From: an uncultured Deferribacteres bacterium
GTDB lineage: Bacteria; Zhuqueibacterota; Zhuqueibacteria; Zhuqueibacterales; Geothermadaptataceae
Reading direction: 5' to 3'
Assembly: GCA_964014485.1 (NCBI GenBank)
Contig: CAXHAT010000135.1
Span: forward strand, 1 to 22,717
Length of the DNA: 22,717 nt
A model generated the notes under the pieces. The model was not told the origin of the DNA. It did no database searches and saw only the letters and a list, made by a program, of their open reading frames with translations. The position numbers and the translations under genes are program-made. This document shows, piece by piece, positions 5,253 to 22,717 of this stretch (the first letter of the stretch is position 1; each line of letters begins with the position of its first letter).

Positions 5253-5363
5253 TGATTGTCCTCAGCGAACTGCTCGAACAGAGATGCTGAAGTCGAAGTC
5301 GAAGCGGTAGTTGTCGCAACTGCCGAAGTAGAAACTGGCAACCCACGCCGAAGAAGCAGTTTT
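5253..5363 (-). repeat. DGR variable repeat VR-B
   Basis: Ungapped 111-nt alignment to TR 8116-8226: 18 mismatches at TR adenines, 2 at non-A positions (both T>C). Confidence 0.93.
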
Positions 5364-6494
5364 CTTGTCCGCCGTCCAGATCCAGCGCTGGGTCGCGTCA
5401 AAAACTTCGTCGATAAACAAGCCGTTTTTGCCCTTCTTCGGCGCCATCAAACTCATGCCTTCCTCCAGCGTCGGCAAGCGCCAGTCGTTAAAGCCGCCGA
5501 ATTTCTCAGCATTCAACGAGTCGATATAATCTTGCGCGCTTTTGAACTTCATGTAATCTTTCGAGCCGCTTTGCTGCCAAGTCAGGCCGGTCGCGTGGTC
5601 AAGTATCGAGACCGCGCCGTTTTTGTCGATTTGCTCGAATTGATTCTGAACACCTTCTCCTGAAGCGTTTTTCCTTTTGTCGTAAAATCCTTTTTCTTGC
5701 AACATTTCCTTAACCGCTTTCTCGGACAACGATTCCGCCGGTTTGGAGCGCAACGATACGGGCGGGGATTTCGAGACTGAGGCTTTGGCTGGCGCGTTTC
5801 TTCGCGTTTCGTTTTGCCGGAGACGGGCTTCCAATTCGGTCAGTTGCTTTTCCCGACGCAAAAGTTTGTCGTTCAGCGCTTCTACTTCGCGCACGGCTTT
5901 TTCCGCCCGTGCCGTTTCGCTTTGCCAGCGCTTTTTCAAGGCCTCGTGTTCAGCACGCAAAACGGCCTTGGCAAGGTCGGCGTTTTTTTGCCTGAGTTCG
6001 GCTTGCAGTTTCGCCAATTCTTCCGCCGGAACCGTCTCGCCGCGCAGCCTGGGTTTGAAATCCTGCACTGGATTGCTCGCATCCCGCGACCAGTTCGGGA
6101 AATCGTGCAAGGATTCGGCGATCTCCTTTTCGAGCGCTTTCAGGCCGTCGATGGATTGTTTGTAAATAATGCAGCGGTAATTGCGGATGTCAAACGGCAA
6201 GTCGTTGGCGCTTTGGGCGCACATGATGGTTTTGTTGCCGATGGCGTGCGCCACGCCCATTTCGTAGAACACGTTGGGATTCATGTCGCTGAGCTCGGCC
6301 ACAACCGCATCGGCGCGGAACAGGTGCTGGATGATTTTTTTGTTAATGTTGAAATGCCCCTTCAGTTCATCCACGCGCACCGCCCGAAATCCGGCGGCCT
6401 CGCACGCAGGCGCGACGGCGTACTTGTATACCTCCAATCGCTCCTCGCTGAACGGCATAATCACAAAGCAGATTTTTTGTTTTTCCTGGGTCAT
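5262..6494 (-). CDS. DGR target B: N-terminal nucleoside deoxyribosyltransferase/TIR-like Rossmannoid domain, coiled coil, C-terminal DUF1566 (Lcl/CLec-fold) domain
   Basis: CFVIMPF...ADAVVAELSDMNPNVFYEMGVAHA...LPFDI; heptad-rich aa ~155-232; DHATGLTWQQ, DWRLPTLEE, WIWTAD, VRAVR. Confidence 0.88.
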   Translation of the reverse strand: MTQEKQKICFVIMPFSEERLEVYKYAVAPACEAAGFRAVRVDELKGHFNINKKIIQHLFRADAVVAELSDMNPNVFYEMGVAHAIGNKTIMCAQSANDLPFDIRNYRCIIYKQSIDGLKALEKEIAESLHDFPNWSRDASNPVQDFKPRLRGETVPAEELAKLQAELRQKNADLAKAVLRAEHEALKKRWQSETARAEKAVREVEALNDKLLRREKQLTELEARLRQNETRRNAPAKASVSKSPPVSLRSKPAESLSEKAVKEMLQEKGFYDKRKNASGEGVQNQFEQIDKNGAVSILDHATGLTWQQSGSKDYMKFKSAQDYIDSLNAEKFGGFNDWRLPTLEEGMSLMAPKKGKNGLFIDEVFDATQRWIWTADKKTASSAWVASFYFGSCDNYRFDFDFSISVRAVR

Positions 6495-6614
6495 TTTTTG
6501 GTTTCAGATGCGGATATCGTCAAGAGCCTTTGATCCCCTTAAATGGTGGAAAAGACGTGAGTTTGAACGGGATAAAATCAATGGGCGGAAAAATAGAAAA
6601 CCGGCGCGTCAATG

Positions 6615-8144
6615 TCAAAGCGTTCTACCGTTAAAGCTCTCTTCGTAGCCGTCTATGATCATGTACGGCAAGCGCTCTTTAGCGTACAAGCACTCTCTCC
6701 CCGTTTGTCGAACCGCGAGTACAGGTATTTTGGCGTGCTCGAGTTTTTTCACCATACGCGGCAGCAATTTGGCTGGAAACCCGCACGCATGGCGATAGCC
6801 CCGCCAACCTTTTATAACGTTCACGTCCAGCGCCGGCGCCAATTCCACGGCTTGCTTACCCAAAACTTCATAGTAGTTTCCGATTTGAATCAAACGGGCG
6901 TAGTTGCCATATTTCCATCCCAGCCAGCTTACTTGCCGTTTGAGCGTCGGCTGTTTGCGAAGACCGGCGTCGAATCGTTTCACTTTTTTGTTCGAAATCG
7001 AGAAATAGCGTTGCAGAAAAGCGTGTTTTTGCCAGAGCTTTTGGAGAAGATTGTCGCAATCAGCGTGTTGAAAATGCCCGAGATAAGCATTGATCGCCGC
7101 CGTCAGCGCATCGATTTCCTCGGAATCGAAACGGTACATCGTAAAGCTCCGCCGCAGTTGCACATTCCTGACGCGAAAAATCTTCAGCTTCGTCTTCAGA
7201 TTCCCAACCGTGCGCCGCCGCACCAGGCAATAATTCGGGCGAACGACAAATCCGCCAAAATCGACCCCGCCGGTAACAAGGCCGAGCTTTGTCGCTTTCG
7301 GGTTCAATTTCAATCGGAGTTTTTCAGCGAGAAACCGCCTGATTTCTTCCTGCCACGTTCTCAATTTCACAGCGTCACAATGCAGAAGAACCAGGTCATC
7401 GACATAGCGCAGATAAAAGCGGCATTTAAGATCGTGTTTCACGAACTGATCCAGCGCGTTGAGATAAACATTGGCGAAAAACTGGCTGGTGAGGTTGCCG
7501 ATGGGCAAGCCGCAATCGGGTCTGGCGTGAAACAGTGATTTATGCGGCGGCAAACGAAAACGCAAATTTTCCCGATCCTTCATTTCGTAATCCTGCGTGC
7601 AGTCGTGGAAAATGACGGTTTCGAGCAGCCATCGCAGATCGGGACGGTGATGCTTTTGCGCCAGCATTTCGAACAGGAGGCGCCGGTCGATGGTCATGAA
7701 GAAGTTGCGGATATCGAGTTTGAGGTAAAACGCGCGCTTCCGGCCGCCGTGCGTGACGCGTCGCTGCATTTTTTGTAATTGATCGACCGCCAAATGCGCG
7801 CCTTTTTCCGGGCGGCAGGCAAAGGAATGGAAGATAAAAGTCTTTTCCCAAATCGGAGAGATGTGATTATAGATCAGATGATGCACCACGCGATCTCTGA
7901 AATCCGCCGCGAAAATTTCACGGCATTTGGGCTTTTCCGTGTAGAAACAAATAGAAGCGGACGGCCGGTAACGGCGCTCCAGCAACTCCTCGGTGAGATC
8001 GACCAGGTTTTGCTCCAGATCGACCTCGAACGCCAGTGCGCTCAGCTTGTTGCGTTTGTTCGCGCGGCAATCGCGCCAGGCGCGGTACACTTGCTGAAAA
8101 TTGAAGAAGGGGTGATGATTTTCCTCAGCGAACTGCTCGAACAT
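6615..8144 (-). CDS. DGR reverse transcriptase with C-terminal MutS domain I-like extension (~509 aa)
   Basis: PKCREIFAADFRDRVVHH, KLDIRNFF, GLPIGNLTSQFFAN (DGR-type signature), YLRYVDD, GVDFGGF; likely ATG at 8144 inside the TR 3' end. Confidence 0.95.
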   Translation of the reverse strand: MFEQFAEENHHPFFNFQQVYRAWRDCRANKRNKLSALAFEVDLEQNLVDLTEELLERRYRPSASICFYTEKPKCREIFAADFRDRVVHHLIYNHISPIWEKTFIFHSFACRPEKGAHLAVDQLQKMQRRVTHGGRKRAFYLKLDIRNFFMTIDRRLLFEMLAQKHHRPDLRWLLETVIFHDCTQDYEMKDRENLRFRLPPHKSLFHARPDCGLPIGNLTSQFFANVYLNALDQFVKHDLKCRFYLRYVDDLVLLHCDAVKLRTWQEEIRRFLAEKLRLKLNPKATKLGLVTGGVDFGGFVVRPNYCLVRRRTVGNLKTKLKIFRVRNVQLRRSFTMYRFDSEEIDALTAAINAYLGHFQHADCDNLLQKLWQKHAFLQRYFSISNKKVKRFDAGLRKQPTLKRQVSWLGWKYGNYARLIQIGNYYEVLGKQAVELAPALDVNVIKGWRGYRHACGFPAKLLPRMVKKLEHAKIPVLAVRQTGRECLYAKERLPYMIIDGYEESFNGRTL

Positions 8145-8226
8145 AGTTGTTGTTGTTGTTGTCGATGTGGTTGTTGTTGCAATTGCCATTGTTGAAATTG
8201 ACAACCCACGCCGAAGAAGCAGTTTT
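8116..8226 (-). ncRNA. DGR template repeat (TR)
   Basis: Reads AAA ACT GCT TCT TCG GCG TGG GTT GTC AAT TTC AAC AAT GGC AAT TGC AAC AAC AAC CAC ATC GAC (AAC)5 TAT GTT CGA GCA GTT CGC TGA GGA AAA TCA; 12 AAY codons; lies between avd and RT. Confidence 0.95.
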
Positions 8227-8402
8227 GTCCCGATGCTTGTCGAGCGGCCGGCAGGCGTTTTTCGCCGCCCGCCAACCAGCCTAATTGCGAAGCCTCCACT
8301 TCTCTCGCAAGAGCTCAGGAGGGCGCTGAAACATGCCGTTGCTGCAAAGCTTGTTTGCGACAACGGCGACCGGGATGCACAATCATCGTATGAGCGCGCT
8401 CC

Positions 8403-8789
8403 TCACGCCGGGGGGCCGGTCATGAGCGATTCCGGCTTTTCCTTCTTCATTGCCGTTCCCAGCCATCCTTCATTTTGTCTGATAATTTCAATGACGAGAT
8501 TGACGCTGTGCTGGTAGGAGTTGGCATTCGGGAACGCCTTGAGATCGCGGCAGAGGCGAATCGTCAATTTCAATTCTTCCAGCGTGTTGCGGTTTTGCAA
8601 AAGCAGTAGGGTTTTATCATGCGCGTCATTTGCCTGACGAATGTTTTGCACCACTCGGCGCGAAAGCCGGCGCAAATCCTCGCCGAGACCGTACTTGTGG
8701 TAACGGCCAAAATTGCGCACCAGTTTCTCGAAGTACAGCGTCAGATCGTACGCCTTTTTATAAATGGGCAAATGTTCGTATCTCGCCAT
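8403..8789 (-). CDS. avd: DGR accessory variability determinant (Avd-like four-helix bundle)
   Basis: 128 aa, basic, HLPIYKKAYDL...F.RYHKYGLGEDLR...LEELKLTIRL...EI.RQ..GW; adjacent to TR and RT. Confidence 0.88.
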   Translation of the reverse strand: MARYEHLPIYKKAYDLTLYFEKLVRNFGRYHKYGLGEDLRRLSRRVVQNIRQANDAHDKTLLLLQNRNTLEELKLTIRLCRDLKAFPNANSYQHSVNLVIEIIRQNEGWLGTAMKKEKPESLMTGPPA

Positions 8790-8832
8790 AATTTAAATGA
8801 CCAAATAATTCAAATCGCCAAATAACCGAGCG

Positions 8833-8946
8833 TGATTGTCCTCAGCGAACTGCTCGAACAAAGACGTTGAAGACGTTGCTGACGACGTGGAAGTAGCTGC
8901 AAAAGCCACTGCTGAAAAGGACAACCCACGCCGAAGAAGCAGAGTA
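8833..8946 (-). repeat. DGR variable repeat VR-A
   Basis: Aligns to TR with one extra NNC codon; 22-24 mismatches depending on gap placement, all at TR adenines. Confidence 0.93.
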
Positions 8947-10638
8947 TTTATCCGCCGTCCATATCCAGCGCTGTTGAGCGCTGAAAATTTCATCAATAAA
9001 AAGACCGCCTGCGTTCTCTTTGGGCTCCATCAAGGACATCGCTTCTTCCAGCGTCGGCAGGCGCCAATCCCTGAATCCGGCGAATTGGATTTGATTGAGC
9101 GAGTCAATATACGCTTGCGCCTGAGCGTATGCCAAGCTCGTTGAGCCGCTTTGCTGCCAAGTCAGGCCGGTCGCCTCGTCTTGTACGATTTTGGCGCCGG
9201 AAATTTCGCGCGCAGTGAATCGATTGTCCAGGCCTTTGCCATTTGGATTATAACCGCGATCGTAAAAGCCGCGGCGTTTGATCATGGCTTCGGCTTCGGT
9301 GCGCGAGAGAAACGATGGTTTTAACCTGCTCAGATTCGTGCGCATCGCAAGCGAATCGCGTTGTTTTGCAGCGTCCAGGTCGAGCGGCAGGGGTAGCGCG
9401 TCTTCGGGCGGGTCTGTTTGCGCGGTTGCGGGGGGCTGCGGCGTCTCTTGCGGTGCGGCGCTGGCTTTATTGCTGGTATAAATCTCGCCGTCCTTCCCGG
9501 ATTGCGCCACCTGGAAGGTCGCGGGCGGTTCGCCGGGTTTGCGCGGCATGTCGTAACTGTTGACGCCGATCGCGACCAGCGGCTCTTCCCGGTTTTTATA
9601 GATCATCGTCACCGGATTGTCCGAAGCCAATTCCGGCGGCGGCCCCGTCCATTCCAGGCGTTCGATATTGTCACCAATCAAGGTTGCTTTCAAGTGAATG
9701 AGCGGTTCGCCGTCCAGGGCGTCGACGGACGGCGGCGGTTTGGGGTAAAATCGGAAGGTAAAGCGCTGGCGCTGCAAGTCTTCCGGCAGGCGCAGCATTT
9801 CCAGTTCGGCAATGTTGCCGGCGCCAAAGCGGTTGCGTCCCGGCGCCATGAACTGGGCGTAGCTTTTGACGTCGTAGTAAAAATTTCCCGCCCCGTCTTT
9901 CACGCGAAAGGCAAAAAAGTCCTCGCTAAAACGCGGATCCTCCGGCTTGATTTTCGGCAGATTGGCAATGCGCGCTTCAAATTCGAAAAAGGTGACGCCG
10001 GTTTCCTGATCGGTCACTCTCCGTGCAGGCAGGGGCAAATGTACGGGCTCGCCGTCGAGATTGAAAACGACGTCCACGGCAAGAGTATCGGCGGGAATTT
10101 GTGACGGACTGGCGGCTTTTCCCTTCAAAATGCGTTGGTCAGGCTCGCCTTCCACTGGTGAAACTTCGCCTTGCACAAGCGGAATTCTGGTGTCGAACTC
10201 AACCGTCAAGGTGTCGCTGAAGTTGCCGTCGAACCCGACCACAACTTTGTGCAGGCCGTCGGTGAGTTTTTGCGGGGTGAGAAATTCGGGATCGAGGGTG
10301 AAACGCCATAGCCAGGTTTCTTCGTCCAGTCTGGTCGGCGTTACGGGATCGAGCAGGCGTACGCCGTCGAATTCGAGTGAGAGCGGCTTGTTTTTGCGCG
10401 CGGCGTTGTTCAGGCACACCACCTGCAAGCCGGAATCGGGGCGTGTAATCGGCTTCAAAAGCGCAAAACGCGGCGGGTCTTCCGGGGCGGGCTTTTGGCA
10501 GATAAAAGGCAACACGCCTACCGCCAGGGCAGCCAGCGCGGGAATCGCGATTTTCCACCATTCAAGGCGATGTTTTTGGCGCTTATGCGCCGTTTCCTCT
10601 GGCGCTGGGCGCTTGTTTTTGGGTTTTCTTCGACTCAC
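8842..10638 (-). CDS. DGR target A: N-terminal membrane anchor, beta-rich middle region, Pro-rich linker, C-terminal DUF1566/CLec domain
   Basis: Basic N-terminus then WWKIAIPALAALAVGVLPFIC; DEATGLTWQQ, DWRLPTLEEAMSL, WIWTAD, VRAVR; GTG start. Confidence 0.85.
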   Translation of the reverse strand: MSRRKPKNKRPAPEETAHKRQKHRLEWWKIAIPALAALAVGVLPFICQKPAPEDPPRFALLKPITRPDSGLQVVCLNNAARKNKPLSLEFDGVRLLDPVTPTRLDEETWLWRFTLDPEFLTPQKLTDGLHKVVVGFDGNFSDTLTVEFDTRIPLVQGEVSPVEGEPDQRILKGKAASPSQIPADTLAVDVVFNLDGEPVHLPLPARRVTDQETGVTFFEFEARIANLPKIKPEDPRFSEDFFAFRVKDGAGNFYYDVKSYAQFMAPGRNRFGAGNIAELEMLRLPEDLQRQRFTFRFYPKPPPSVDALDGEPLIHLKATLIGDNIERLEWTGPPPELASDNPVTMIYKNREEPLVAIGVNSYDMPRKPGEPPATFQVAQSGKDGEIYTSNKASAAPQETPQPPATAQTDPPEDALPLPLDLDAAKQRDSLAMRTNLSRLKPSFLSRTEAEAMIKRRGFYDRGYNPNGKGLDNRFTAREISGAKIVQDEATGLTWQQSGSTSLAYAQAQAYIDSLNQIQFAGFRDWRLPTLEEAMSLMEPKENAGGLFIDEIFSAQQRWIWTADKYSASSAWVVLFSSGFCSYFHVVSNVFNVFVRAVR

Positions 10639-10644
10639 GTCATT

Positions 10645-10721
10645 CAGTATCCAGTGAGCAGTGAGCAGTGAGCAGTGAGCAGTGAGCAGTGAGCAGTATT
10701 CAGTTCACAGTTCACAGTTTA
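10645..10721. repeat. Heptamer tandem array (CAGTNNN)x11 including (CAGTGAG)x6
   Basis: cagtatc, cagtgag x6 (10652-10693), cagtatt, cagttca x2, cagttta. Confidence 0.92.
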
Positions 10722-10725
10722 CTAC

Positions 10726-11997: not shown

Positions 11998-12004
11998 CCC
12001 GAGT

Positions 12005-12322
12005 TTACTCGTCATTGACGTCATGAATATTATTGGCGTTTTGGGCTTGTCTGAATCTTGAAACCGTCTCCATCGCTGCATCATCAAGAAACTCAGCCCC
12101 ACAATTCGTACAGGAAAATCTCTCCAAATTCGGCAAAATCGCACCATCATTGAGTTTGCATGGACCGCCAGTTCGCATCATTGTTTTTTCACCACATTCC
12201 GGGCACGTTAGTATGGACGGTAGATCTTGCCACCATGCATCGGCGGAAGACGACACTTCCCTAGGCTTGGTCCGTTGTGCACTTTTTTTATTCTGTAGAG
12301 CGCTTTGAGGAAATAATGACAT
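12005..12322 (-). CDS. YgiT/MqsA-type zinc-finger protein (antitoxin-like)
   Basis: CPECG...CTNCGAEFLDDAAM; overlaps the upstream toxin-like gene. Confidence 0.7.
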   Translation of the reverse strand: MSLFPQSALQNKKSAQRTKPREVSSSADAWWQDLPSILTCPECGEKTMMRTGGPCKLNDGAILPNLERFSCTNCGAEFLDDAAMETVSRFRQAQNANNIHDVNDE

Positions 12323-12596
12323 AGAAAACCTCTTGATTCATTTCTTTTTGAATCTTCCCTTTCGTATACACAGCCAGACCGTCGAAGGTCAAACCCTTGA
12401 TAACATAAAGCGTTTCTCGTTTATTTGTTTTAGGGTTTCGTGATCGAAGTTTTTTGAAAATCGACGGTGCGTTCAGAAGCGCTTCGTATACCATTTCTTT
12501 GGTTAAATGGTCAGCGGTCATTTCATTTTCGGCTTTCAAAGTAAAGACAACGCGGCGAGCGATTATAAGTCGTTTTATCCGTATAAATACATCCAT
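12288..12596 (-). CDS. DUF4258/RelE-MqsR-like putative toxin
   Basis: 102 aa basic; VVFTLKAENEM..D.LT...V.EALL...LYVIKG...YVIISSK; paired with zinc-finger gene. Confidence 0.6.
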   Translation of the reverse strand: MDVFIRIKRLIIARRVVFTLKAENEMTADHLTKEMVYEALLNAPSIFKKLRSRNPKTNKRETLYVIKGLTFDGLAVYTKGKIQKEMNQEVFYVIISSKRSTE

Positions 12597-12972
12597 TTCA
12601 CATGAGCTACGAATCGAAACAAAGCCAAACGTTCAAAACCCTTGCAACTAAAATAGTCGAGCGTCGGCAAAAACACAAGCAAACAAAAAAAGCGAAATCT
12701 CAACGACCTGAACCAACATGCAGCATTCCGGCAGTTTACGCCGCTACATTCACGGATCATTGCTCAATCTCATCGGGCAACAAGAATCGAGGCTAGTTTT
12801 GCACAAGGTCAGGAACTTCGTCGCGCCAAAAATGTATGACGGACGAACCGCTTTCCATTGCAACAATTACCCGCCGCCTTGACGATAAGTGTTTGCTCTG
12901 TTGATGGAATATTCTTTATATTCAGCGCCGTTCTTCTCAAGTAATCCCGGTATAAACGAACAACGCAGGTTC

Positions 12973-15900
12973 ATGCAATTTATGCGACCTATTTATTTCC
13001 TCGTTATCGCGCTTTTGCTCACGCTCTTTTGCAGCGATCTTTTTTCGCAAAAATCCGCCGTTTTACACACGGCGACCAGCGCTTCAAACCTGCGCCTTCA
13101 GCTCAAATTTAATTCTCCTGAGCTCGACACCCTTCTCATCGACAACCGCGCCTTTGTCTGCCCGAACCTCGTTTCAGAAAACGGACTTTATTTTCATCAG
13201 ATTGACGGCCTCCCGGTCGCCGGGACGGCGCTGGCCTTGCCGCACGCGAGTCAAAATCCGCGTCTCACCATCACCAATGAAAACTGGGAAAATATTCAGA
13301 CCTCGCTGCCGCTTGCTCCGCCTGCGCAAATTCAGCCGGACGGTGAGTTGACGTATTTTTCTTACCAGGCGCAAACAAGTGATCAAGCCGCGCCAAGTCC
13401 CGCGGTTTCTTTAGACCGCACCGCATGGTTCCGCAATCTCAAAGTCGCTCATCTGACCATTTCTCCGACCCGCCTGCAAAATAATCAACTCCAATATTTA
13501 AGGAGCGCCGAGGTCATTCTGCAATGGGAAAATACGGCGTCCGGAGCTTCGATTCAAAGCTTCGATGCAGGTCGTGAATTTAATGCCGGGCAAGACGATT
13601 TTGACTACGCACAATCCGTCTTGAATAAAAGCGACGCCACCCGATTTCTCAAGCCGCGCGCAAAACCGGCGGCCAAATCTGCAAATTTCGCCAACCGCGA
13701 TTTTTTGTTGGTTCAAGTGACGGAAAACGGCTGGTATCAAATTACCGGCGCGGACTTGACGGCGCAAAATATCAGTCTCTCGGGCTTGCAGTCCGACCAA
13801 ATTCGGATGTACAACAACGGCGGGCGCACGCTGCCGGAAAAGCCGTCTGATACACGGCCTGAAACGTTGATCGAAATTCCGATTTTGGTGAACGACGGCG
13901 GCGACGGCAGTTTCGATCCTGATGATACAATTCAGTTCTTCGGCGCGAGCGTGCATGATTGGGAATACTCGCAAACCGAGGCCAGATGGCGGCGTTTTAA
14001 CAATCCCTATACCAACGAGAACGTTTATTGGCTTTCCTGGGATGCTCAGGAAAGTGCGGCAAAACGATTGGCGGAAATTTCCATCGCGGCAAATGCCGGT
14101 CAGGCAAAAAGTGCGGGGTTGAATCTGCAAAAAATCGAGACCGACATTGTCAATCCCATCAATTCAGGTCGTGATTGGTACGGTCGCGAATTATCGCTCT
14201 CCGACGCCACGGCGAACTACTCTTTTAACCGAACTGCCGGGCAAGCGCTGCAAAACGGACGCATCTATTTACGTGTGGTTTCCAAGACCAGCGGCAGGCA
14301 TACCGTTTCTCTTGGCTGGAATCAAAACTCACTTAACACCTATAGTTTTTTCGGCTCGACCGGCGGCGATTACTTGGACATGAACGGCCAGACCTACACC
14401 GCCAATGTTCCCAACACACTCATTCAAGCCGAAAATACGCTGACCTTAAATTACAGCAATACGCTGCAAACCGGTTCGCTTTTTGTCGATTGGGTGGAGT
14501 TTATTGCGGAAGACGATTTGGCGGTTCAGGACGGTGAATTGACGTTTGCCGCTGCGCCAAGCTCCGGGATCGAAACTTGGCGAGTTACCGGAGCAGGTTC
14601 GGACGCCCGTATTTTTGAAATCTCAAATCCCGTTGCGCCGCGAACGCTCGCATTCACCCAACAAGGCGAGACGCTGATTTTTGCAGATTCGATGAACACA
14701 GCCACGCCTAAAAGGTATTTCATTGCTGATGTGCCGAAAGCGCCCGCGGCATTCGAGCGTTACACCACTTCAGACATTCGCGGCTCGTCAAACACAGCCG
14801 ATATGCTCGTGGTCACGCACAGCGATTTTCTGGACGAGGCCAATCGCTTTGCCGAGCACAAACGCTCAGTTCGCAATTTTGAAGTCGCTGTTGTTGACGT
14901 GAACGTTGTGATGAAGGAATTTGGCTGGGGGCTGATGGACCCGACCGCGATACGTGACTTTGTCGCCTATGCGTTTCACAATTGGCAAAAGCAGCCGCAG
15001 TATCTCGTGCTTTTCGGGGACGGCGTTTATGATTATCGCGGCATTGGGCGCGGCATAAACCAAAACTTTGTGCCGACATTTCAAACGACAGAGCTTGAAG
15101 AACTGGTCAATCGCAACCTTGAAGCCTACTACACTTACGTCAACGGCGACGATCGCGACATGGATTTGTCGATGGGTCGTATCCCGGCGCAAACGATTGA
15201 TGAGGCGCGAAATTTTGTCGACAAACTCATCGAATATGAAACGAAACCGGAATTCGGCTTTTGGCGCACGATTCTGACGATGGTCGCAGATGACGAACTC
15301 GTCACCGGCGGGCGGGACAACGGCGAAGTCATCCATACTAAGGACGCCGAAATTATCGCTGAACGACACACGCCGGATTACCTGAATCTTAGCAAAATTT
15401 ACCTGACCGAATACGAAGGCGTGCGCACAGCTTCGGTTTCCGGGGTTCGCAAGCCGCAAGCTCAACAAGCGCTGATCGACCGCATTAACAGCGGCACCCT
15501 GGTCTTGAATTATGTCGGGCACGGCAATTCAACGCAGTGGGCGCACGAAGTCGTTTTTGAGTTGGCGCAGGATTTCCCTTCGTTGCAAAATGATCGTAAG
15601 TACCCGTTCATCGTCGCAGCGACTTGCGATTTTGGCCGTTACGATAAATTGAATTCGCAGAGTTTTCCTGAAGAATTGCTTTTTGCGCGCGGTAAAGGGG
15701 CGGTTGGCTTGTTCACTTCGAGCCGCGTTGTTTACGCCCAACCAAACGCAACATTTAACAAAGCCTATTACGATATATTGTTCACAGAATCGCCGGGAAG
15801 TATTTCTATTGGCGAAGCGTTGATTTTGGCAAGGATGCAAACTCCGGCGGGATTTGTCGTCAACGATGAAAAATTCACCATTCTCGGCGATCCGTCTCTA

Positions 15901-16962
15901 AGGCTTGCAATCCCGACAAGCTCGGCGCAAATCATCTCCGTTTCTCCCGATACGCTTTTCGCGTTGAACAAAACCAATATCATCGGCACGGTGCAAAGTT
16001 TTAGTGAAGTGCCCATCAGCGCCGGCGAAGTTGAGCTTGTCGTTTTCGACGACAAGAAGCGGGTCAGATATTTAACTTCGCGCAATTCGCCGATTGATTA
16101 CATCCTCCCCGGCAATCTCATTTTTCGCGGCAAGGGCGCTTTGCAAGGCGAGCTGTTCGACATGAATTTCATCGTGCCGAAAGACGTGACCTACGGCGGC
16201 AGAACGGCCAGGATGAGCGTTTACGGCGTGGGCGACAATTGGGAAGCTCTGGGCTATCGTGAATCGATTCCGATCAGCCTGCGCTCCGGCGTGCTTTTTG
16301 ACGAAGAGGGCCCGGAAATTACGGTGAGTTTTTCAGATCGCGAGTTTTTCGCCAGCGGCGATCCGATCACCCGGACCTCGTCAATTATTGCGACCATCGC
16401 CGATTCCGTTTCCGGCGTGAATCTCACCGGTGAAATCGGCCACAAGATCACCTTGACCATCGACGGCGACACAGAAAATCGACTTGATCTAACACAGAAC
16501 TTCGTTTATTTCGAGAACGATTTTTTGAGCGGGCAACTCACGGCGCAGCTTCCCAAAAACCTCGCGCCGGGTTTGCACTTGGCGGAATTGAAAGCATGGG
16601 ACAACTCCAACAACTCATCGCGAAAGCAATTCGAGTTCATTCTGACGGAAGACGGCGAACTGACGCTTTCAGACGTGCTCAACTACCCCAACCCGTTTCA
16701 GGAAAGCACCGCTTTTACGTTTATTCTTAACGCCGACGCCGAAGTCAAAATTTCGGTTTACACAGTTGCGGGACGTTTGATTCAAACGCTGGAAAACATT
16801 GCCGCGACGCCCGGATTCAATCAAGTCCCTTGGGACGGCCTCGACGCGGACGGCGATGAATTGGCGAACGGCGTTTATCTCTATCGCATCGTAGCCAAAA
16901 GCGTTGTAGACGGCGAAGACGTTGTCATTGAGCAAATCGAGAAGCTGGCGATTCAGCGATAA
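12973..16962 (+). CDS. porU: C25 (gingipain-family) peptidase, PorU-like type IX secretion sortase with C-terminal sorting/FlgD-like domain
   Basis: Signal peptide; V..NGWYQITG, DPTAIRDF, YLVLFGDG.YD, GRIP, NYVGHG and ATCDFG (His/Cys dyad), LGDP, KAWDNSNN, NYPNPF, NGVYLYRI; start chosen at ATG 12973. Confidence 0.82.
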   Translation: MQFMRPIYFLVIALLLTLFCSDLFSQKSAVLHTATSASNLRLQLKFNSPELDTLLIDNRAFVCPNLVSENGLYFHQIDGLPVAGTALALPHASQNPRLTITNENWENIQTSLPLAPPAQIQPDGELTYFSYQAQTSDQAAPSPAVSLDRTAWFRNLKVAHLTISPTRLQNNQLQYLRSAEVILQWENTASGASIQSFDAGREFNAGQDDFDYAQSVLNKSDATRFLKPRAKPAAKSANFANRDFLLVQVTENGWYQITGADLTAQNISLSGLQSDQIRMYNNGGRTLPEKPSDTRPETLIEIPILVNDGGDGSFDPDDTIQFFGASVHDWEYSQTEARWRRFNNPYTNENVYWLSWDAQESAAKRLAEISIAANAGQAKSAGLNLQKIETDIVNPINSGRDWYGRELSLSDATANYSFNRTAGQALQNGRIYLRVVSKTSGRHTVSLGWNQNSLNTYSFFGSTGGDYLDMNGQTYTANVPNTLIQAENTLTLNYSNTLQTGSLFVDWVEFIAEDDLAVQDGELTFAAAPSSGIETWRVTGAGSDARIFEISNPVAPRTLAFTQQGETLIFADSMNTATPKRYFIADVPKAPAAFERYTTSDIRGSSNTADMLVVTHSDFLDEANRFAEHKRSVRNFEVAVVDVNVVMKEFGWGLMDPTAIRDFVAYAFHNWQKQPQYLVLFGDGVYDYRGIGRGINQNFVPTFQTTELEELVNRNLEAYYTYVNGDDRDMDLSMGRIPAQTIDEARNFVDKLIEYETKPEFGFWRTILTMVADDELVTGGRDNGEVIHTKDAEIIAERHTPDYLNLSKIYLTEYEGVRTASVSGVRKPQAQQALIDRINSGTLVLNYVGHGNSTQWAHEVVFELAQDFPSLQNDRKYPFIVAATCDFGRYDKLNSQSFPEELLFARGKGAVGLFTSSRVVYAQPNATFNKAYYDILFTESPGSISIGEALILARMQTPAGFVVNDEKFTILGDPSLRLAIPTSSAQIISVSPDTLFALNKTNIIGTVQSFSEVPISAGEVELVVFDDKKRVRYLTSRNSPIDYILPGNLIFRGKGALQGELFDMNFIVPKDVTYGGRTARMSVYGVGDNWEALGYRESIPISLRSGVLFDEEGPEITVSFSDREFFASGDPITRTSSIIATIADSVSGVNLTGEIGHKITLTIDGDTENRLDLTQNFVYFENDFLSGQLTAQLPKNLAPGLHLAELKAWDNSNNSSRKQFEFILTEDGELTLSDVLNYPNPFQESTAFTFILNADAEVKISVYTVAGRLIQTLENIAATPGFNQVPWDGLDADGDELANGVYLYRIVAKSVVDGEDVVIEQIEKLAIQR

Positions 16963-18369
16963 TCAGCGCCAAAACGGAATAAAATACTCACGCGGCTCAG
17001 GTTCTTCGTCGTTCTCTCCCTCTTCTTCATCATCATTTAATTTCGCCGCCAAACTCTGACGCGTCTCTCGTTCAATTTTCAGAAAATTCCTGCCTTTAGG
17101 CAAACCTTCTGTTGGAACATAACCTATCAAGCCGCGCAGCTTTGTTTTGGGGTGAACGTAGAAGAAAAACGAATCCGTCTCGAGAGGTTCGTTATTCAAA
17201 GAAATCTCGAAAAGCTGCAAAAAACACCCGGCAATGCTGTCAGCTTTTGCTGCGATATTTTCGTCGCCGCCGGATGAAAATCGGAGCCCGTCCTGCCCAA
17301 ACGGCTCAATATTGGGGCATATTTTTGCCATCATTTCGTTGTCGTCCCACGCGCGCCACGGCAGAAACAACTTGAGGTACGGCCCGTCGATCACGTCCGA
17401 CTGAATCGTCGGCACGCGGCTGGTGCTGGCCCGGCGCTGGTCTTCATAATGCGCAAAGTCCATCTTGCTGGCCAAATCGTCGTCCGGGAAATAAACATAC
17501 GAATTGAATGAAGCCTGCCGAACGAATACGTCGTTGACCATAAAAATCGAAACGACGAACCCCAAGAATAAAAACATCACAATCGACGCGATTTTCCGTG
17601 AAAGATGACTGGCGAAAACCAAAAATATCGGCGCCGTGACAATGCTGGAAGAGATATAATTATATGTTTTGTAGCACGTGCGCGCGAGTTTAGCCAGTTT
17701 TTCGCTTTTGGTCTCTCTCTTTTCCAGAATGCGGTCAATGATCGCCGCGACCAGAAACGGCGCAAACATGGTCGCCATAAATGCCACAAGCGCGATAAAA
17801 TAGATATTTTTCATCGACCAACCGCCGAACGCCAGCGAGATCAAATAAACGATTCCGAAGCAAAGAGAAATTGCGGCCACGCCGTAAAACAGTGCAAAAA
17901 TAACCTGAAAGGCCGCCGAGAAGAGCGAGCTGCAAAACTTGTCCGCCATCCCCGCCATCTTCTTCAAATTTAACGTCGTCTCGCGCGCCACTTCTTTTTG
18001 GATAGGCTTGAATTTCAACTTCTCCCACTTAACGCCGCTGGGAAAAACGGAGTCCAATCCGACGAGCCCCACCCAAAATGCACGAGAAATCATGTGCATG
18101 AAAAACGTCACAATCAGTGTATAGGAAACTAGCTTGCCGAAATAATAGAGCATCCACGGAACCATGAACAGATTCCGGGAAATGTGCAGCACGGTCGAGT
18201 CGAACATTTCGTCCATCAGGCCGGGCAGATTCAAAAGCGCGAAAATGACCGCTCCTGAAATTAAAAACTCCAACTCCCAGGTTCGAAGGTGCAATTCCCG
18301 CAGCGTTTTGAACGCCTGCGACTTTATTTCTTCCGCCTTGTCCCCCGCTTGATTTTCTTTCTTTTCCAT
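16963..18369 (-). CDS. Multi-pass membrane protein of unknown function
   Basis: TWELEFLISG, SRAFWVGLVGL.SVFP.G, several hydrophobic helices, soluble C-terminus; ATG at 18369. Confidence 0.8.
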   Translation of the reverse strand: MEKKENQAGDKAEEIKSQAFKTLRELHLRTWELEFLISGAVIFALLNLPGLMDEMFDSTVLHISRNLFMVPWMLYYFGKLVSYTLIVTFFMHMISRAFWVGLVGLDSVFPSGVKWEKLKFKPIQKEVARETTLNLKKMAGMADKFCSSLFSAAFQVIFALFYGVAAISLCFGIVYLISLAFGGWSMKNIYFIALVAFMATMFAPFLVAAIIDRILEKRETKSEKLAKLARTCYKTYNYISSSIVTAPIFLVFASHLSRKIASIVMFLFLGFVVSIFMVNDVFVRQASFNSYVYFPDDDLASKMDFAHYEDQRRASTSRVPTIQSDVIDGPYLKLFLPWRAWDDNEMMAKICPNIEPFGQDGLRFSSGGDENIAAKADSIAGCFLQLFEISLNNEPLETDSFFFYVHPKTKLRGLIGYVPTEGLPKGRNFLKIERETRQSLAAKLNDDEEEGENDEEPEPREYFIPFWR

Positions 18370-18858
18370 TCCTTTTTCCACTCCGCTCAATATTACCGCC
18401 TTCCTTAATTTTTGGGTCCTTACGAATCCATCAGCTTCCCAACCGTGCTCACGATCTTGCCCGGAAAGCACCCCAGGAGTCAAACGCTGAAGCGTTTGAG
18501 TTTATTTTACCGTCATCGGCGACTGTCCAAAAACAAGGCGTCTGAATAGCAGACATACCATATGTAGGGTTCAAAATCTTGAACCCCTATGACATGTTGT
18601 ATATCGCTCTGCAAGTGTTATGTTTTTGGACAGTCGCACTCCGACAAAGAGTCCCAGAAGCTTTGCACGCAGCAAAATTTTACTCGGTAATTTTTACATT
18701 ATTCATCTTTTCACAGATTTCCAAAACCCGTAAAACCAATTTTCAAAATCGTCATAAACCATTGTTTATTAAAGCTGAAAATCACATTACAAAACTGTGG
18801 CGTCGCCTTTGCCTAAAGCCAAGCCAGAACAATTAACGATCTCATTCAGGAGGCAAAA

Positions 18859-19149
18859 ATGATAACCGCACAACTGATTATGATCACGTTGGCGAGCCTC
18901 TCTGTAGCACGAGCTTTTGTTGCAAGAGGCGCGCTTGACTATCGGCAGAAATGGTTGAATTATCCGGTCGCTTTTCTCGGCGGCTTCTGCGGCGCCCAAC
19001 TCTTCCCGGTTGAATCGGGAGCGCAGACGGTAAAACTGCTAGCGATTATTTTCGCTTCCGGCGCCGCCGTCATGGTTTACCATGCGCTGCGACAATTTTT
19101 TGTCGTCAAATCCACCGGAACCGCGTGTTCCAGATACAGCGAAATTTGA
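18859..19149 (+). CDS. Small membrane protein (about 3 hydrophobic segments)
   Basis: AGGAGG ribosome-binding site upstream of ATG; hydrophobic segments such as VAFLGGFCGAQLF. Confidence 0.6.
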   Translation: MITAQLIMITLASLSVARAFVARGALDYRQKWLNYPVAFLGGFCGAQLFPVESGAQTVKLLAIIFASGAAVMVYHALRQFFVVKSTGTACSRYSEI

Positions 19150-19168
19150 CGAAATTATTCAGGATATA

Positions 19169-19546
19169 ATGATGAAAACGATAACCAGGGGCATATATCG
19201 AGGCTTTTTGCTGATCATCTTTTGGAGTTTTAGCAGCGTGCTGATTAGCCGTCCTGAAACGACTGCGCAGCACGCCAGCTTTGAAACTGTGACGACTCAG
19301 CCTATCGAAGAATCAAAGACAAATGCGGCGGGTGAAAACGACTCACGCACAGCTTCGGCGCTTGCCTGGTTCTGGCCAGCCGCATTTTTGCTCGGCTGCA
19401 TCATCTTGAGCATCGTGACGCTTTACGTGCGCATTTTGCTCAATCGCGCCGAAATCGGCGATGTGGTTCGAGAGGTAAAAAGCGAGGAAAGCAACAAACG
19501 AAAGGAGTTCAAAATGGATGAAAATTTTCGCCCTGTGCGAAGATAA
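19169..19546 (+). CDS. Hypothetical membrane protein
   Basis: Two hydrophobic segments (GFLLIIFWSFSSVLI; LAWFWPAAFLLGCIILSIVTLYV); ATG at 19169. Confidence 0.55.
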   Translation: MMKTITRGIYRGFLLIIFWSFSSVLISRPETTAQHASFETVTTQPIEESKTNAAGENDSRTASALAWFWPAAFLLGCIILSIVTLYVRILLNRAEIGDVVREVKSEESNKRKEFKMDENFRPVRR

Positions 19547-19609
19547 ATGAATCTGCGGCGGTAAGGTCAGGATGACGACCCGTCGCACCATAAAACCCAG
19601 GTAACAAAT

Positions 19610-19699
19610 TGTCGTTCTGAAAGAATCTTTTAAATCGCAAGTACTGAAATATCGGTAAATTCCAAAACTGGAACGAAAAAAGATTCTTTCAGGATGGCG
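19610..19699. repeat. REP-like inverted repeat, same family as 1391-1481
   Basis: tgtcgttctgaaagaatctttt...aaaagattctttcaggatggcg. Confidence 0.7.
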
Positions 19700-19820
19700 A
19701 GGCGGGATGGACAAGAATTTTAGACGGCGACTCTGCTTCGCCGCATAAGTCAAATTTTTGACAAGAAAGTTTTAACGCATAGCTGCGTTACCTTCCATCT
19801 CCCCTCCAGCCAACGCGAAC

Positions 19821-19852
19821 GAAGCCCGGCTTGCTAATGCGAGTCGGGCTTC
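19821..19852. terminator. GC-rich hairpin between convergent genes
   Basis: gaagcccggcttgc-taat-gcgagtcgggcttc, 14-bp stem with two G-U pairs; no clear U tract. Confidence 0.4.
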
Positions 19853-20825
19853 ATCGTTTTTGCGCAGAAGCTGATTCACGAAGCGTCAAAATTCCGATAA
19901 TCCACAGCGGAACGTGGATAAACAAGGGCAGTCCGCCAAGAAATCCTGCAATGACGCCGAAGCCCATGCACATCCAGCCAATCCATCGCGACATGAATGC
20001 AGTTTTTAGGATGGCGCCGCCAAATGCCGCGAGACCAATGTATGCCAGGATGCTGTAGAGCGCAAACAACACCGCCGCCCACGCCCGCCAGGGTTCAAAC
20101 CATGCCGGCGCCGCGGAAGTGACGCTCCATTCTTGAGCCGCGAGATTCAAAACCGTGAGTCGAAACGCCAGGTGCAACACCCAAAAAACAGCGCCGAACG
20201 CATAGCTCAACAATCCAATTTTTGCAAGGAACCGATCCCCGTTGTTCTCCAAAGTTATCGTGAAAAAAGCCAAACCGAAAAGCGTGACAACGGTTGCAAC
20301 AATAAAATTCACGCTCGTCCACAAATTCCCGGCAGTGTTCGCCGCAATCACATCTAACGCCATGCCTTGAAAGGTTCTCGCACCCACCCAGAAAATCACG
20401 GCGCCCAGGATGAAAAATCCCGCAGCAATCCGAGCCGGTTGACTGGATTCATTATTGGCAAGCGCTTTGAAAGACCAGGCTCCAAACTTGCCGAGTATCG
20501 CGATCACAACAACGAAATGAACCATTGCGACGATGCGGAACGCTTCGATGCTCTCCACGGCGAATTGTTTCGCGAACCAGTCAGCGAGAAACTGGAAGTG
20601 ATAAACCGAGAGGATGAACGAGAGCCAGAGGTAAAGTTCCCCGAGGTTCTTGAGCTTTTCGCGACCTAGCATCGACCAGACCGCCGCAATTACGATCAGG
20701 AGAACGGAGAATCCCAATCCAAAAGCCGCGGTGATGACCCCGTTTTCAATGAGAGCGGCGAATGGTATGATAGCTACGAATAAAACGGGCCCCAGCCATT
20801 TATTTAGAACGAAATCCTTTTTCAC
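19851..20825 (-). CDS. Multi-pass membrane protein of unknown function
   Basis: 324 aa, about 9-10 hydrophobic helices; GGAG upstream of GTG. Confidence 0.75.
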   Translation of the reverse strand: MKKDFVLNKWLGPVLFVAIIPFAALIENGVITAAFGLGFSVLLIVIAAVWSMLGREKLKNLGELYLWLSFILSVYHFQFLADWFAKQFAVESIEAFRIVAMVHFVVVIAILGKFGAWSFKALANNESSQPARIAAGFFILGAVIFWVGARTFQGMALDVIAANTAGNLWTSVNFIVATVVTLFGLAFFTITLENNGDRFLAKIGLLSYAFGAVFWVLHLAFRLTVLNLAAQEWSVTSAAPAWFEPWRAWAAVLFALYSILAYIGLAAFGGAILKTAFMSRWIGWMCMGFGVIAGFLGGLPLFIHVPLWIIGILTLRESASAQKR

Positions 20826-20849
20826 AAAAAATTAAACTCCCGACTCATC

Positions 20850-20972
20850 ATAAAAAAATCGAAGCTGGCGTATTGCAAAATAAACCAAAACACCGCCATG
20901 CTCAGCGCCTGCCCGAAAATATCAATCCCCGACAACGCCTTCTTCCGCAACGACGAAGTGATTTTTGATCAT
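20850..20972 (-). pseudogene. Possible frameshifted 5' remnant of a MacB-type ABC permease
   Basis: GGAG then ATG; MIKNHFVVA / frameshift / RKKALSGIDIFGQALSMAVFWFILQYASFD resembles the MIKNY..IA.RNL.K.K.FS.INI.GLA.G N-terminus of that family. Confidence 0.4.
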
Positions 20973-21141
20973 ACTTTTTTCTCCAGTGATTTTGAATAAA
21001 GGAGTGCGAAGCTTGCTTTGCTTCATACTCAGTTGAATCGCAAGGTAAACCTTGCACTCCTTCCGCCATGCGGAGCGGCAACTCCACCCTTTGAAGGCTT
21101 TTAAGGGTAGCTTTTTTGAAAAACTGAGACTCTATACACCG

Positions 21142-21214
21142 TGTCATACCCGCGCAGGCGGGTATCCAGATTTGGGGCGCCCTTGTCTGGATACCCGCCT
21201 GCGCGGGTACGACA
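21142..21214. repeat. REP-like inverted repeat (29-bp arms)
   Basis: tgtcatacccgcgcaggcgggtatccaga / tctggatacccgcctgcgcgggtacgaca, one mismatch. Confidence 0.85.
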
Positions 21215-21420
21215 AAAGCGGCGCTTTTGTGTAAAAAGGAAAAACCTGTCCTTAGAAGCTTTCGAAGGAGAGAACGGCTCGACGCTTCGCGTCGCTGATG
21301 GAAGCAAGCCGGGTTCATTCAGCCAAAATTCAATAAATTTTCGAGGCGCGCTGACGCGCGTTCTTTGGTGTGCCTCAGCTTTGCAAATGAGAAAATTCAC
21401 GACGAGAGGACGACTTTTTC

Positions 21421-21482
21421 AGGGGGTGGAATAATCAGCGCTCTGCTTTTGGAGAACCGCACTGCATTGTACTCCACCCCCT
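21421..21482. promoter_or_regulatory. Stem-loop downstream of target C
   Basis: agggggtggaata ... tactccaccccct, 12 of 13 pairs. Confidence 0.6.
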
Positions 21483-21513
21483 AAAGAACCAAATAAATCA
21501 AATTGCCAAATGA

Positions 21514-21603
21514 TCAAGATTGTCCGGAACGAACAGCGCGGACGTAGTTGCCGTCGCCGACATGATCGTTGTCGCAACCACCGTAGTTGAAAAGGACAAC
21601 CCA
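21514..21603 (-). repeat. VR-like region of target C (diverged relative to the local TR)
   Basis: TGG GTT GTC CTT TTC AAC TAC GGT GGT TGC GAC AAC GAT CAT GTC GGC GAC GGC AAC TAC GTC CGC GCT GTT CGT TCC GGA CAA; A-site changes plus 8 non-A changes and two fewer codons. Confidence 0.7.
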
Positions 21604-22452
21604 GACGTCCGACGCGCTCTCTTTATCTGCCGTCCAGATCCAGCGCTGCTTTTTGTCAAACGCCGGATCGATATAGAGATCGCCGTTTTTCTCTTCACAC
21701 TCCATTAATGACATCGCTTCTTCCAGCGTCGGTAATCGCCAATCGTCAAATCCGGTGAATTCAACACGGTTAAGGCGCTCAACATAATTTTCGGCGCTGT
21801 TGTAATCAGGCCTATCATCAGAACCTGATTGCTGCCACATCAATCCGCCGGCATGATCAACCACCAGTTTTTCGCCCTGCCTTTCGACCAATTCGAAATC
21901 GTTTGCGAAGCCCTTGCCGTTTTTTTTCTTAAATTTATCGAAAAAATCGTTTTCGACGAGCATCTGCTTCACATCATTATCTGAAAGCTCGTGGCCTGCT
22001 GCTCTGAATCGCGGTCGGCGCGGCAGCGGTTTGGCGAGCGGCGCGATTTGCTGTTTCGGCGTTTCGAGCGGTTCTACATGCAGCGCCGTCAACAATTGTC
22101 GCAGGCTGTTATCGAAATCGTGGAATTGAATGTACAAGCGACTGCTCAGAAGCGCCGGGCGGGGTGCGTCGTCCAAAAGGCAGGGGATAATTTGTTTTTG
22201 CAGCGAGTGGGCGCAAGTCCATTCTTCCTGCACCCAGTGCGAGGCTTTGGCTTTTTTTGACCAGAGCAGGAGCAATGTATCGCACCATTCCAGCGCGTCG
22301 TTAATGCGCTTGGGCAGATTGTCGCCGGCGCGGGTCTGGTTTTGGTCAATCCAGACTTCCAGCCCTGCGGCTTTCAGTTCGCGTTCCAAACGCCGCACAA
22401 CGGCCTTGTCTTCCCAGGCGTGGCTAATAAAAATGCGCGGTTTCTGCGCCAT
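21514..22452 (-). CDS. TIR domain + DUF1566/CLec protein (putative remote DGR target C)
   Basis: RIFISHAWED, VWID, LLLLWS, S.WVQEEW (TIR_2 with putative catalytic Glu), IIPCLLD; DHAGGLMWQQ, DWRLPTLEEAMSL, WIWTAD, YVRAVR. Confidence 0.9.
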   Translation of the reverse strand: MAQKPRIFISHAWEDKAVVRRLERELKAAGLEVWIDQNQTRAGDNLPKRINDALEWCDTLLLLWSKKAKASHWVQEEWTCAHSLQKQIIPCLLDDAPRPALLSSRLYIQFHDFDNSLRQLLTALHVEPLETPKQQIAPLAKPLPRRPRFRAAGHELSDNDVKQMLVENDFFDKFKKKNGKGFANDFELVERQGEKLVVDHAGGLMWQQSGSDDRPDYNSAENYVERLNRVEFTGFDDWRLPTLEEAMSLMECEEKNGDLYIDPAFDKKQRWIWTADKESASDVWVVLFNYGGCDNDHVGDGNYVRAVRSGQS

Positions 22453-22526: not shown

Positions 22527-22645
22527 CTCGTTCCCAATCTCCCGATTGGGAACGCACTTGCACCCGAAACTCCAGTTTCAAGTGTGTTCCTTGGCTCGAA
22601 GCTGGAGTTTCACGGCTCATTCCAAAACTCCGGTTTTGGAATGAG
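22527..22645. repeat. REP-like composite palindrome, copy 2
   Basis: Closely matches the reverse complement of 4151-4274. Confidence 0.8.
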
Positions 22646-22717
22646 TCGTGAAACTCTTCTATAACCGACATTCCGCACACAAGAATTGGAGATGGAAATC
22701 ATTTCTTTCTCTCATTA

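Follow-up and report, generated by a model that had tools for sequence, protein, structure and literature searches.

A TIR-lectin gene as probable stand-alone target of a diversity-generating retroelement encoded on another contig in an uncultured Deferribacteres bacterium

Background

The locus described here raises the question of which template has written the variable region (VR) of a lectin-tailed gene that lies well away from the retroelement in its own neighbourhood. The gene was analysed in a stretch of 22,717 nucleotides, referred to below as the window (contig CAXHAT010000135.1 of assembly GCA_964014485.1, an uncultured Deferribacteres bacterium), which also carries a diversity-generating retroelement (DGR), here DGR1. 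It occupies 21514..22452 on the minus strand, and its open reading frame (ORF) encodes 312 residues in which a TIR domain is joined to a C-type-lectin-fold (CLec) domain, as assigned with Pfam (TIR_2 and Lcl_C) and AlphaFold. An earlier note, made from the window alone, had proposed that this TIR-CLec gene is either served in trans by a related template repeat (TR) elsewhere or is a formerly diversified allele now fixed. The comparison with the rest of the genome indicated that the gene is probably a stand-alone target of a second retroelement, DGR2, which is encoded on another contig of the same genome.

Results

The genome (assembly of 8.4 Mb in 465 contigs, 97% complete) was searched at the DNA level with positions 21514-21640 as query. 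Four further copies of the VR sequence were obtained, one of which is adenine-rich. This copy, termed TR2, is a 97-nt homologous core with 27 adenines on contig C74 (G000:C74:31523-31619), situated between the genes of the accessory protein Avd2 (C74 31815-32213) and the reverse transcriptase RT2 (C74 30036-31520). The genome-wide BLASTN suggested in the earlier note thus located the adenine-rich copy beside another reverse transcriptase (RT), and both stretches that had been predicted for a related TR acting in trans are present in TR2 letter for letter. The order of DGR2 on one strand of C74 is a 1027-aa target, Avd2, TR2, RT2 and a 483-aa target. Avd2 (bAvd, E 3e-13) is 64% identical to Avd1 of the window's DGR1, and RT2 (RVT_1, E 1e-14) is 56% identical to RT1. 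RT2, Avd2 and TR2 are intact, and RT2 keeps YVDD and IGNLTSQ, the latter of which we take to be the DGR-type RT motif.

The set of VRs belonging to TR2 was defined by BLASTN of TR2 against the genome, which gave four. The window VR (21518..21614, minus strand) showed 11 adenine and 1 non-adenine mismatches to TR2. Those of the 1027-aa NNH1-NACHT-LRR-CLec protein (C74 32306-32402) and of the 483-aa protein (C74 28585-28681) each showed 17 adenine and 1 non-adenine mismatches, and that of a 622-aa protein with weak nSTAND matches (C30 44988-45084) showed 15 and 1. The falling of 11 of the 12 window mismatches on the 27 adenines of TR2, among 97 positions, has a hypergeometric p of 1.3e-6, and 69 of the 70 non-adenine sites are identical. 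The template likeness of the window VR is therefore far beyond chance once TR2 is the reference. When the four VRs were compared pairwise, all non-adenine sites were identical (70/70), against 8-15 of the 27 adenine sites, and the 150 nt upstream of them were 66-80% identical only. The adenine-site pattern of the window VR is unique, as it shares 10-13 of 27 sites with any other TR2 VR. TR2 encodes Asn-rich codons (…VVNFNNGNCNNNHVDNNNY…), and the gene now reads …VVLFNYGGCDNDHVGDGNY…. The window VR accordingly combines the features by which a DGR target is recognised: it is a near copy of a TR that has an RT and an accessory gene beside it, it differs from that TR at the putative homing boundary, and it lies in a C-terminal CLec domain.

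The sole non-adenine mismatch of the window VR to TR2 is this boundary position (21522, minus strand), with T in the TR and C in the VR, and it is common to all four TR2 VRs. In the motif GGAxAATC the position is C in 4/4 TR2 VRs and 2/2 VRs of TR1, the template of DGR1, while it is T in TR2 and A in TR1 (VR GGACAATC, TR2 GGATAATC, TR1 GGAAAATC). The base was read as a putative marker of recipient and donor, equivalent to the difference between the initiation of mutagenic homing (IMH) site and IMH*. Past this marker the VR and TR2 sequences are unrelated.

Just 3' of the window VR, a triple ATTTGR repeat was observed (21489..21511, minus strand; also at 5221-5243 and 8801-8823), which is a candidate target-recognition element. 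Both strands of the 8.4-Mb genome together contain the form ATTTGR-N(1-4)-ATTTGR-N(1-4)-ATTTGR six times, once directly past each of the six VRs; the repeats are absent after TR1 and TR2, and the three matches in the window compare with none in 100 shuffles. The triple is also seen behind CLec genes of related KSB1/Calditrichia loci. The strict form was counted 26 times in 73 related loci (909 kb), and of the 93 CLec genes for which 90 nt or more of downstream sequence were available, the strict triple follows 20 and the looser [AC]T[TC]TGR form 32. The exact ATTTGR form is apparently not critical, because VRs of relatives with adenine-only mismatches carry CTTTGR variants at variable spacing. 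Wu et al. 2018 (PMC5758913) reported that only 34% of DGRs have GC-rich inverted repeats after the IMH, and by analogy the ATTTGR repeat may be the counterpart of that element in this clade. No description of the repeat was found in the main text of the DGR accounts compared.

The window's own template was compared in the same manner. The DGR1 cassette (5253..10638) holds, all on the minus strand, a 598-aa target (8842-10638, with VR 8833-8942), an Avd homologue (8403-8789), TR1 (8116..8226, the template of the two DGR1 VRs), RT1 (6615-8144) and a second target (5262-6494, with VR 5253-5363). A repeat search had grouped 21541-21617 with TR1 (8146-8222) and with the local VR (8866-8942). In frame, however, the remote VR (21518-21614) differs from TR1 by 16 adenine and 8 non-adenine positions and by a 6-nt gap, which amounts to two codons. 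From TR1 to the remote VR the non-adenine changes are T>C three times, C>T four times and G>C once; the seven C/T changes all fall on the third base of a codon, and the G>C change is that of TGA in TR1 against TCC in the VR. In comparison, VR 8833-8942 shows 19 adenine differences from TR1, no other difference and a 3-nt insertion, and VR 5253-5363 shows 18 adenine differences and 2 other bases. The eight non-adenine differences and the gap, against none and two such differences in its own VRs, rule out TR1 as the source of the remote VR, and all eight positions agree with TR2. The earlier note had described a CLec module with a VR-like codon pattern about 11 kb from the cassette, with these eight differences (seven of them third-position C/T), two codons fewer, a diverged 5' part, TCC in place of TGA and the protein end VRSGQS; every item of this description was reproduced, the spacing being 10.9 kb (10638 to 21514).

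Several features of the cassettes were observed alongside. The VR of the 598-aa target (8866-8900) is one codon longer than TR1 (8146-8180) within an AAC run, and VR 5253-5363 carries no indel; indels opposite AAC have been reported (Wu et al. 2018, PMC5758913). TR1 lies in frame within an open N-terminal extension of the RT ORF (8116-8363, minus strand), with the likely RT1 start codon (MFEQ...) falling inside the 3' end of TR1, and the RT2 frame is likewise open through TR2. At the N-terminus of the second DGR1 target (5262-6494) lies a TIR-like effector domain (PADLOC 'Effector TIR', E 9.8e-12; weak Pfam Nuc_deoxyrib_tr), and therefore both DGRs of the genome appear to diversify TIR-family fusions. 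RT1 and RT2 both end in a module resembling MutS domain I (RT1 residues 403-481, window 6702-6938, minus strand), with E 5.8e-9 for RT2, above the Pfam cut-off, and E 9e-4 for RT1, just below it. By eye the module has YYE where MutS carries F-x-E, the mismatch-binding motif of that protein, and it may bear on the handling of a mismatched duplex of cDNA and target. Wu et al. 2018 (PMC5758913) had already noted a weak MutS_I-like motif in three related RTs, within the C-terminal extension. At G000:C94:24000-28588 the genome has a third DGR, which differs in type from DGR1 and DGR2, with a 689-aa target bearing an FGE-sulfatase domain, an accessory gene with an HRDC domain and a 337-aa RT that is 31% identical to RT1.

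The make-up of the TIR-CLec gene was examined by BLASTN of each segment against its own genome, which holds 13 CLec-tailed paralogues. The TIR part is closest to a paralogue on contig C322 (72%), the lectin scaffold ahead of the VR is closest to the TR2 targets on C74 (C74_A) and C30 (71-74%), the VR segment matches the TR2 family only, and the 198 nt past the VR (3' flank, 21320..21517, minus strand) match only three paralogues on contigs C34 and C5 (78-79%). The TR2-type sequence in the gene starts and stops at the TR2 boundaries. This mosaic is what would be expected if TR2 cDNA had written the VR into the resident gene, rather than the VR having come with a duplicated cassette target, as the 3' flank is like that of the C34/C5 paralogues and unlike that of the remaining TR2 targets; the unique adenine-site pattern makes a copy from another VR unlikely.

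The three paralogues with the same flank are CLec genes, two of them with a TIR domain (G000:C34:22620-23591, C34:25723-26199 and C5:5724-6788; loci L011 and L012). Their VR-like ends are 78-81% alike, and one of them has the TR-like GATAATC at the boundary marker. No template for these ends was found in the assembly; either their template is unassembled or they are truly frozen copies. Within the flank, about 190 nt are conserved among the four paralogues, with a 9-bp long-range stem formed by the inverted repeat 21422-21430 / 21473-21481 and a terminator-like GC hairpin at 21345-21362. The flank, taken as RNA, gave no Rfam match above noise, and the consensus fold of the four copies is almost without covariation.

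The protein was analysed at the level of domains and structure. The TIR domain covers residues 7-121 (22090..22434, minus strand; Pfam TIR_2, E 3e-29), and the Lcl_C domain, which bears the VR, covers residues 196-308 (21529..21867, minus strand; E 7.9e-20); Lcl_C (DUF1566, PF07603) is a family of C-type-lectin fold. The AlphaFold model, which rests on 42 aligned homologues picked for near-full coverage from 120 listed, has a mean predicted local distance difference test score (pLDDT) of 90.3 and a disordered linker at residues 131-141. The TIR half matched 4w8h (Z 18.0), ThsB 6lhy (Z 15.6) and the SARM1 TIR 9hq0 (Z 15.6), with Z 10.8-18 for TIR-fold matches overall and Foldseek E of about 1e-6. 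The Foldseek list was filled by TIR proteins, and the lectin domain was reached by a wide VIA search instead, in which it matched the C-terminal domain of Legionella Lcl (8q4e) with Z 12.2 over 115 aligned residues and a root mean square deviation of 2.8. The earlier note had pointed to a WVxxE glutamate, and this residue, E77 in the motif WVQEE, is the same in 42/42 aligned homologues and aligns with a Glu of PdTIR 3h16 and a Glu of 7uxr, which we assume to be the catalytic Glu of TIR enzymes. S71, V74 and W78 are also invariant in the alignment. In the VR, the scaffold residues W284, V286, F288, G291, C293 and VRAVR are conserved, with hypervariable columns between them.

The TIR domain begins the protein directly, and no signal peptide or membrane segment was seen by inspection. 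Pfam found no NTPase domain (NACHT or nSTAND) between TIR and CLec in the 312 residues. PADLOC matched the protein to TIR effector models; the ThsB-type matches are weak (Pfam ThsB_TIR, E 6e-6; PADLOC ThsB, E 3e-7 and weaker). Among the other ORFs of the window and the neighbours of five stand-alone relatives, no Pfam match suggested a ThsA-like partner, a genome-wide search for ThsA not having been made, and no conserved partner gene was seen in the window or around those five relatives. The latter result fits a self-contained module.

The search for homologues gave 1081 proteins at E <= 1e-10 among 2723 candidates, and all 120 that were listed carry TIR_2 and Lcl_C; by sequence, the family of direct TIR-CLec fusions thus numbers at least 1081. 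Many members are named candidate division KSB1 by their sources, and the nearest non-self homologue among the matches listed is about 56% identical. A scan of one genome per species yielded the 73 loci, with 28 TIR-CLec genes. Nine of these genes have at least 9 kb on both sides: three adjoin a full RT homologue, one an RT fragment, and five no RT. Where an RT is adjacent, the mismatches of the TIR-CLec VRs to the local TR fall on adenines in 14/14 (L016), 11/11 (L018) and 14/14 and 20/21 (L035). In the KSB1 assembly JAPDQK (Candidatus Zhuqueibacter pondensis), two other scaffolds likewise have TIR-CLec VRs that match the TR of L018, one with 14 adenine and 2 non-adenine mismatches and the other with 17 adenine and 1 non-adenine mismatches and a 3-nt indel. 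Since this TR matches VRs on other scaffolds and five of the nine loci lack an RT, stand-alone TIR-CLec targets served from elsewhere are, judged from these sequences, a recurring trait of the lineage.

Discussion

The mechanism proposed for the window gene is as follows. RT2 and Avd2 would reverse-transcribe the TR2 RNA with random bases opposite template adenines, and the cDNA would replace the 97-nt VR at 21518-21614. This would recode about 11 codons, Asn in the template, at the face with which the C-terminal lectin-fold domain binds its ligand. The adenine-poor 3' end of the VR, of about 25 nt, would decide which sibling DGR serves the gene; this segment differs at several positions between TR1 and TR2 and is here of TR2 type. 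The GGACAATC end together with the ATTTGR triple would mark the sequence as recipient and not as donor. We infer that homing at this VR still occurs. For the protein, the features described suggest, with about even chances, a cytoplasmic one-chain sensor-effector whose TIR domain, probably NAD+-consuming, is activated once the diversified lectin domain has bound its ligand. The ligand on the diversified face would be a foreign one or a danger ligand, with the TIR domain as the output. TIR domains can, on the other hand, also act as signal producers or scaffolds, which weighs against this assignment of function.

The observations that count against a gene served at present from a distance were gathered and set beside the rival explanations. 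The window VR has changed at 11 of the 27 adenine sites, compared with 15-17 of 27 in the three other TR2 VRs. The bases directly after GGACAATC are unlike those of the other three targets, and the hairpin CCCGC-GCA-GCGGG of those targets is replaced by a different inverted repeat; if these elements matter, homing at the window VR may be less efficient. In a collection of 15 billion proteins only one allele was found for this gene and for each of 7 other CLec-tailed paralogues, including all five other DGR1/DGR2 targets, the sole second cluster member among these look-ups being an identical fragment. Two metagenome DNA scans with stretches of the window gave no matches, and a search of 30 relatives (including the unpublished G016 and G023) gave no close orthologue, the best being about 70-80% over parts of the gene. 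The distance itself may also be modest, as the window's contig (C135) and C74 both end in high-copy repeats and could be separated by as little as about 5 kb plus the repeat. 

The low number of changed adenines, the altered bases and hairpin after the VR, and the record of the exact protein on 6 contigs, in a 90% cluster with no other member, are all what a frozen relic would show, that is, a VR once written by TR2 cDNA whose site is no longer a competent recipient and whose allele is fixed. This explanation is nevertheless judged unlikely. None of the 69 comparable non-adenine sites has drifted from TR2, though the flanks of the paralogues differ by 20-34%, and both the triple repeat and the GGACAATC end have been preserved. 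The spacing and sequence after GACAATC vary also among those VRs of relatives that have adenine-only mismatches, and the cis targets looked up are equally devoid of variant alleles in the protein collection, so that a single allele does not discriminate. The frozen alternative put forward in the earlier note concerns, moreover, only the present activity of the site and not the origin of the VR.

The origin of the VR is touched by two further explanations, both of much lower probability than the relic. With 13 CLec-tailed paralogues in the genome and a gene that is mosaic by similarity, recombination is plausible, and gene conversion between paralogues could have given a TR2-like VR without reverse transcription; a copied VR would, however, bring the adenine-site states of its donor, and the window VR has a pattern of its own (10-13 of 27 sites shared) while every non-adenine site is identical among the TR2 VRs, with homology ending exactly at the TR2 boundaries. 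Conversion is for these reasons very improbable. A diverged target of the local TR1 has next to no probability: the nearness of the gene to DGR1 (10.9 kb) and a GGACAATC end and triple repeat like those of the TR1 targets speak for it, but the non-adenine differences and the gap set the gene apart from the two VRs of TR1, and all eight non-adenine positions at which it departs from TR1 match TR2. Service of the gene by DGR2 in trans consequently stays the probable explanation.

A wider picture can be drawn, though tentatively, and we consider it rather less likely than the one-chain reading of the protein. KSB1-like bacteria might possess dispersed immune receptors, hypervariable and of one chain, in which a DGR-diversified lectin-fold sensor is joined directly to a TIR effector without an NTPase switch and which are served in trans by one or two DGR hubs. 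A portable label (GGACAATC plus three ATTTGR) and about 25 nt of template-specific homology would capture new paralogues, and the window gene, with its C34/C5-type 3' flank, would have been taken over by TR2.

The surroundings of the gene were also inspected. Genome-wide repeats are present in the window at 22527-22717, 4147-4274, 21143-21213 and in the first ~40 nt. They include a palindromic unit of about 125 nt, similar to a miniature inverted-repeat transposable element, in dozens of copies, and short terminal sequences are common to about 70 contig ends; these repeats account for the breaks between contigs. The ORF 20902-21318 overlaps a genome-wide repeat and is probably not a gene. On the plus strand, 12889-16962 encodes a gingipain-like Peptidase_C25 protein of 1357 aa with a C-terminal FlgD_ig-type domain, which is unrelated to the DGRs.

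Comparison with known systems

Trans targets and DGR targets bearing TIR or NACHT domains are already published (Wu et al. 2018; Doré et al. 2024), and what is new here is the protein family and the phylum. A literature search on DGRs with DUF1566 and TIR found no paper, and the one paper listed for DGRs with KSB1 does not connect them; the direct TIR-Lcl_C fusion was not found as a class of DGR target in the main text of the DGR accounts compared, and neither 'KSB1' nor 'Calditrich' appears in the main text of Doré et al. 2024 (PMC10907252). The locus demonstrates that a variable region by itself can suffice to predict a template repeat that is then located elsewhere in the genome. It provides a clear case, from a little-studied phylum, for the idea that cellular DGRs diversify intracellular immune sensors, and it presents the simplest sensor form among the published accounts compared, a TIR domain joined directly to a variable lectin domain. 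Such a protein offers a small and appealing model in which to study how a TIR enzyme would be activated once a DGR-diversified domain binds its ligand. The sibling DGRs divide their targets cleanly into sets of 2 and 4 VRs, and the same repeat label follows every VR; the genome thereby offers a natural experiment on the choice of targets in trans.

According to Doré et al. 2024 (PMC10907252), cellular DGRs diversify CLec sensors that are coupled to NACHT, nSTAND1, CHAT and TIR domains, and their trans targets can be told from the agreement with a TR at non-adenine sites. The DGRs of Thiohalocapsa PB-PSB1 and 'clade 5' in that account resemble the present ones in having several loci per genome and C-terminal CLec VRs on proteins of conflict systems. 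There the TIR domain accompanies STAND NTPases or CHAT or is encoded by a neighbouring gene, whereas here it is fused directly to CLec. The STAND/NLR-type sensors of the same account have a central NTPase, which the window protein lacks. Among the sibling TR2 targets, Pfam gave signs of an NTPase in the 1027-aa protein on C74 (NNH1 and NACHT) and in the 622-aa protein on C30 (the weak nSTAND matches). TvpA-type targets are FGE-type surface proteins. Remote targets of the Treponema denticola type are alike in that a single TR reaches target genes that do not adjoin the RT (Wu et al. 2018, PMC5758913), and that survey assigned 73 putative non-adjacent targets to 45 of 372 DGRs by adenine-only differences. 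For conflict-system FGS domains, TRs 'elsewhere in the genome' were mentioned by Kaur et al. 2020. The present case differs from the Treponema denticola DGR in its cytoplasmic-looking TIR fusion and in the sharing of one recipient-end type by two sibling DGRs. The DGR of Bordetella phage BPP-1 (mtd-avd-TR-brt) is similar in its C-terminal CLec VR, Avd, TR, RT, adenine mutagenesis and IMH against IMH* (PMC5758913); it is a phage system acting in cis on a tail-fibre gene, with a GC-rich inverted repeat after the IMH. The window gene, in contrast, has GGACAATC and then three ATTTGR repeats at its recipient end, and it lies on another contig than TR2.

The two halves of the protein have known counterparts of their own. 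The C-terminal domain of Legionella pneumophila Lcl (8q4e, PF07603 / DUF1566), a surface adhesin domain, is of the same fold and family as the lectin half. Lcl is, to our knowledge, not known to be diversified by a DGR, and in the present protein the domain ends in a VR. The TIR half shares its fold and the aligned glutamate with NAD+-consuming TIR effectors such as the SARM1 TIR, AbTIR, ThsB, SPARTA TIR-APAZ and Cat1. TIR enzyme domains of this kind serve in cell-suicide immunity. In known TIR effector systems the sensor is an Argonaute, a SAVED or ARM domain, or a separate ThsA partner, whereas here the sensor would be a DGR-diversified lectin-fold domain on the same chain.

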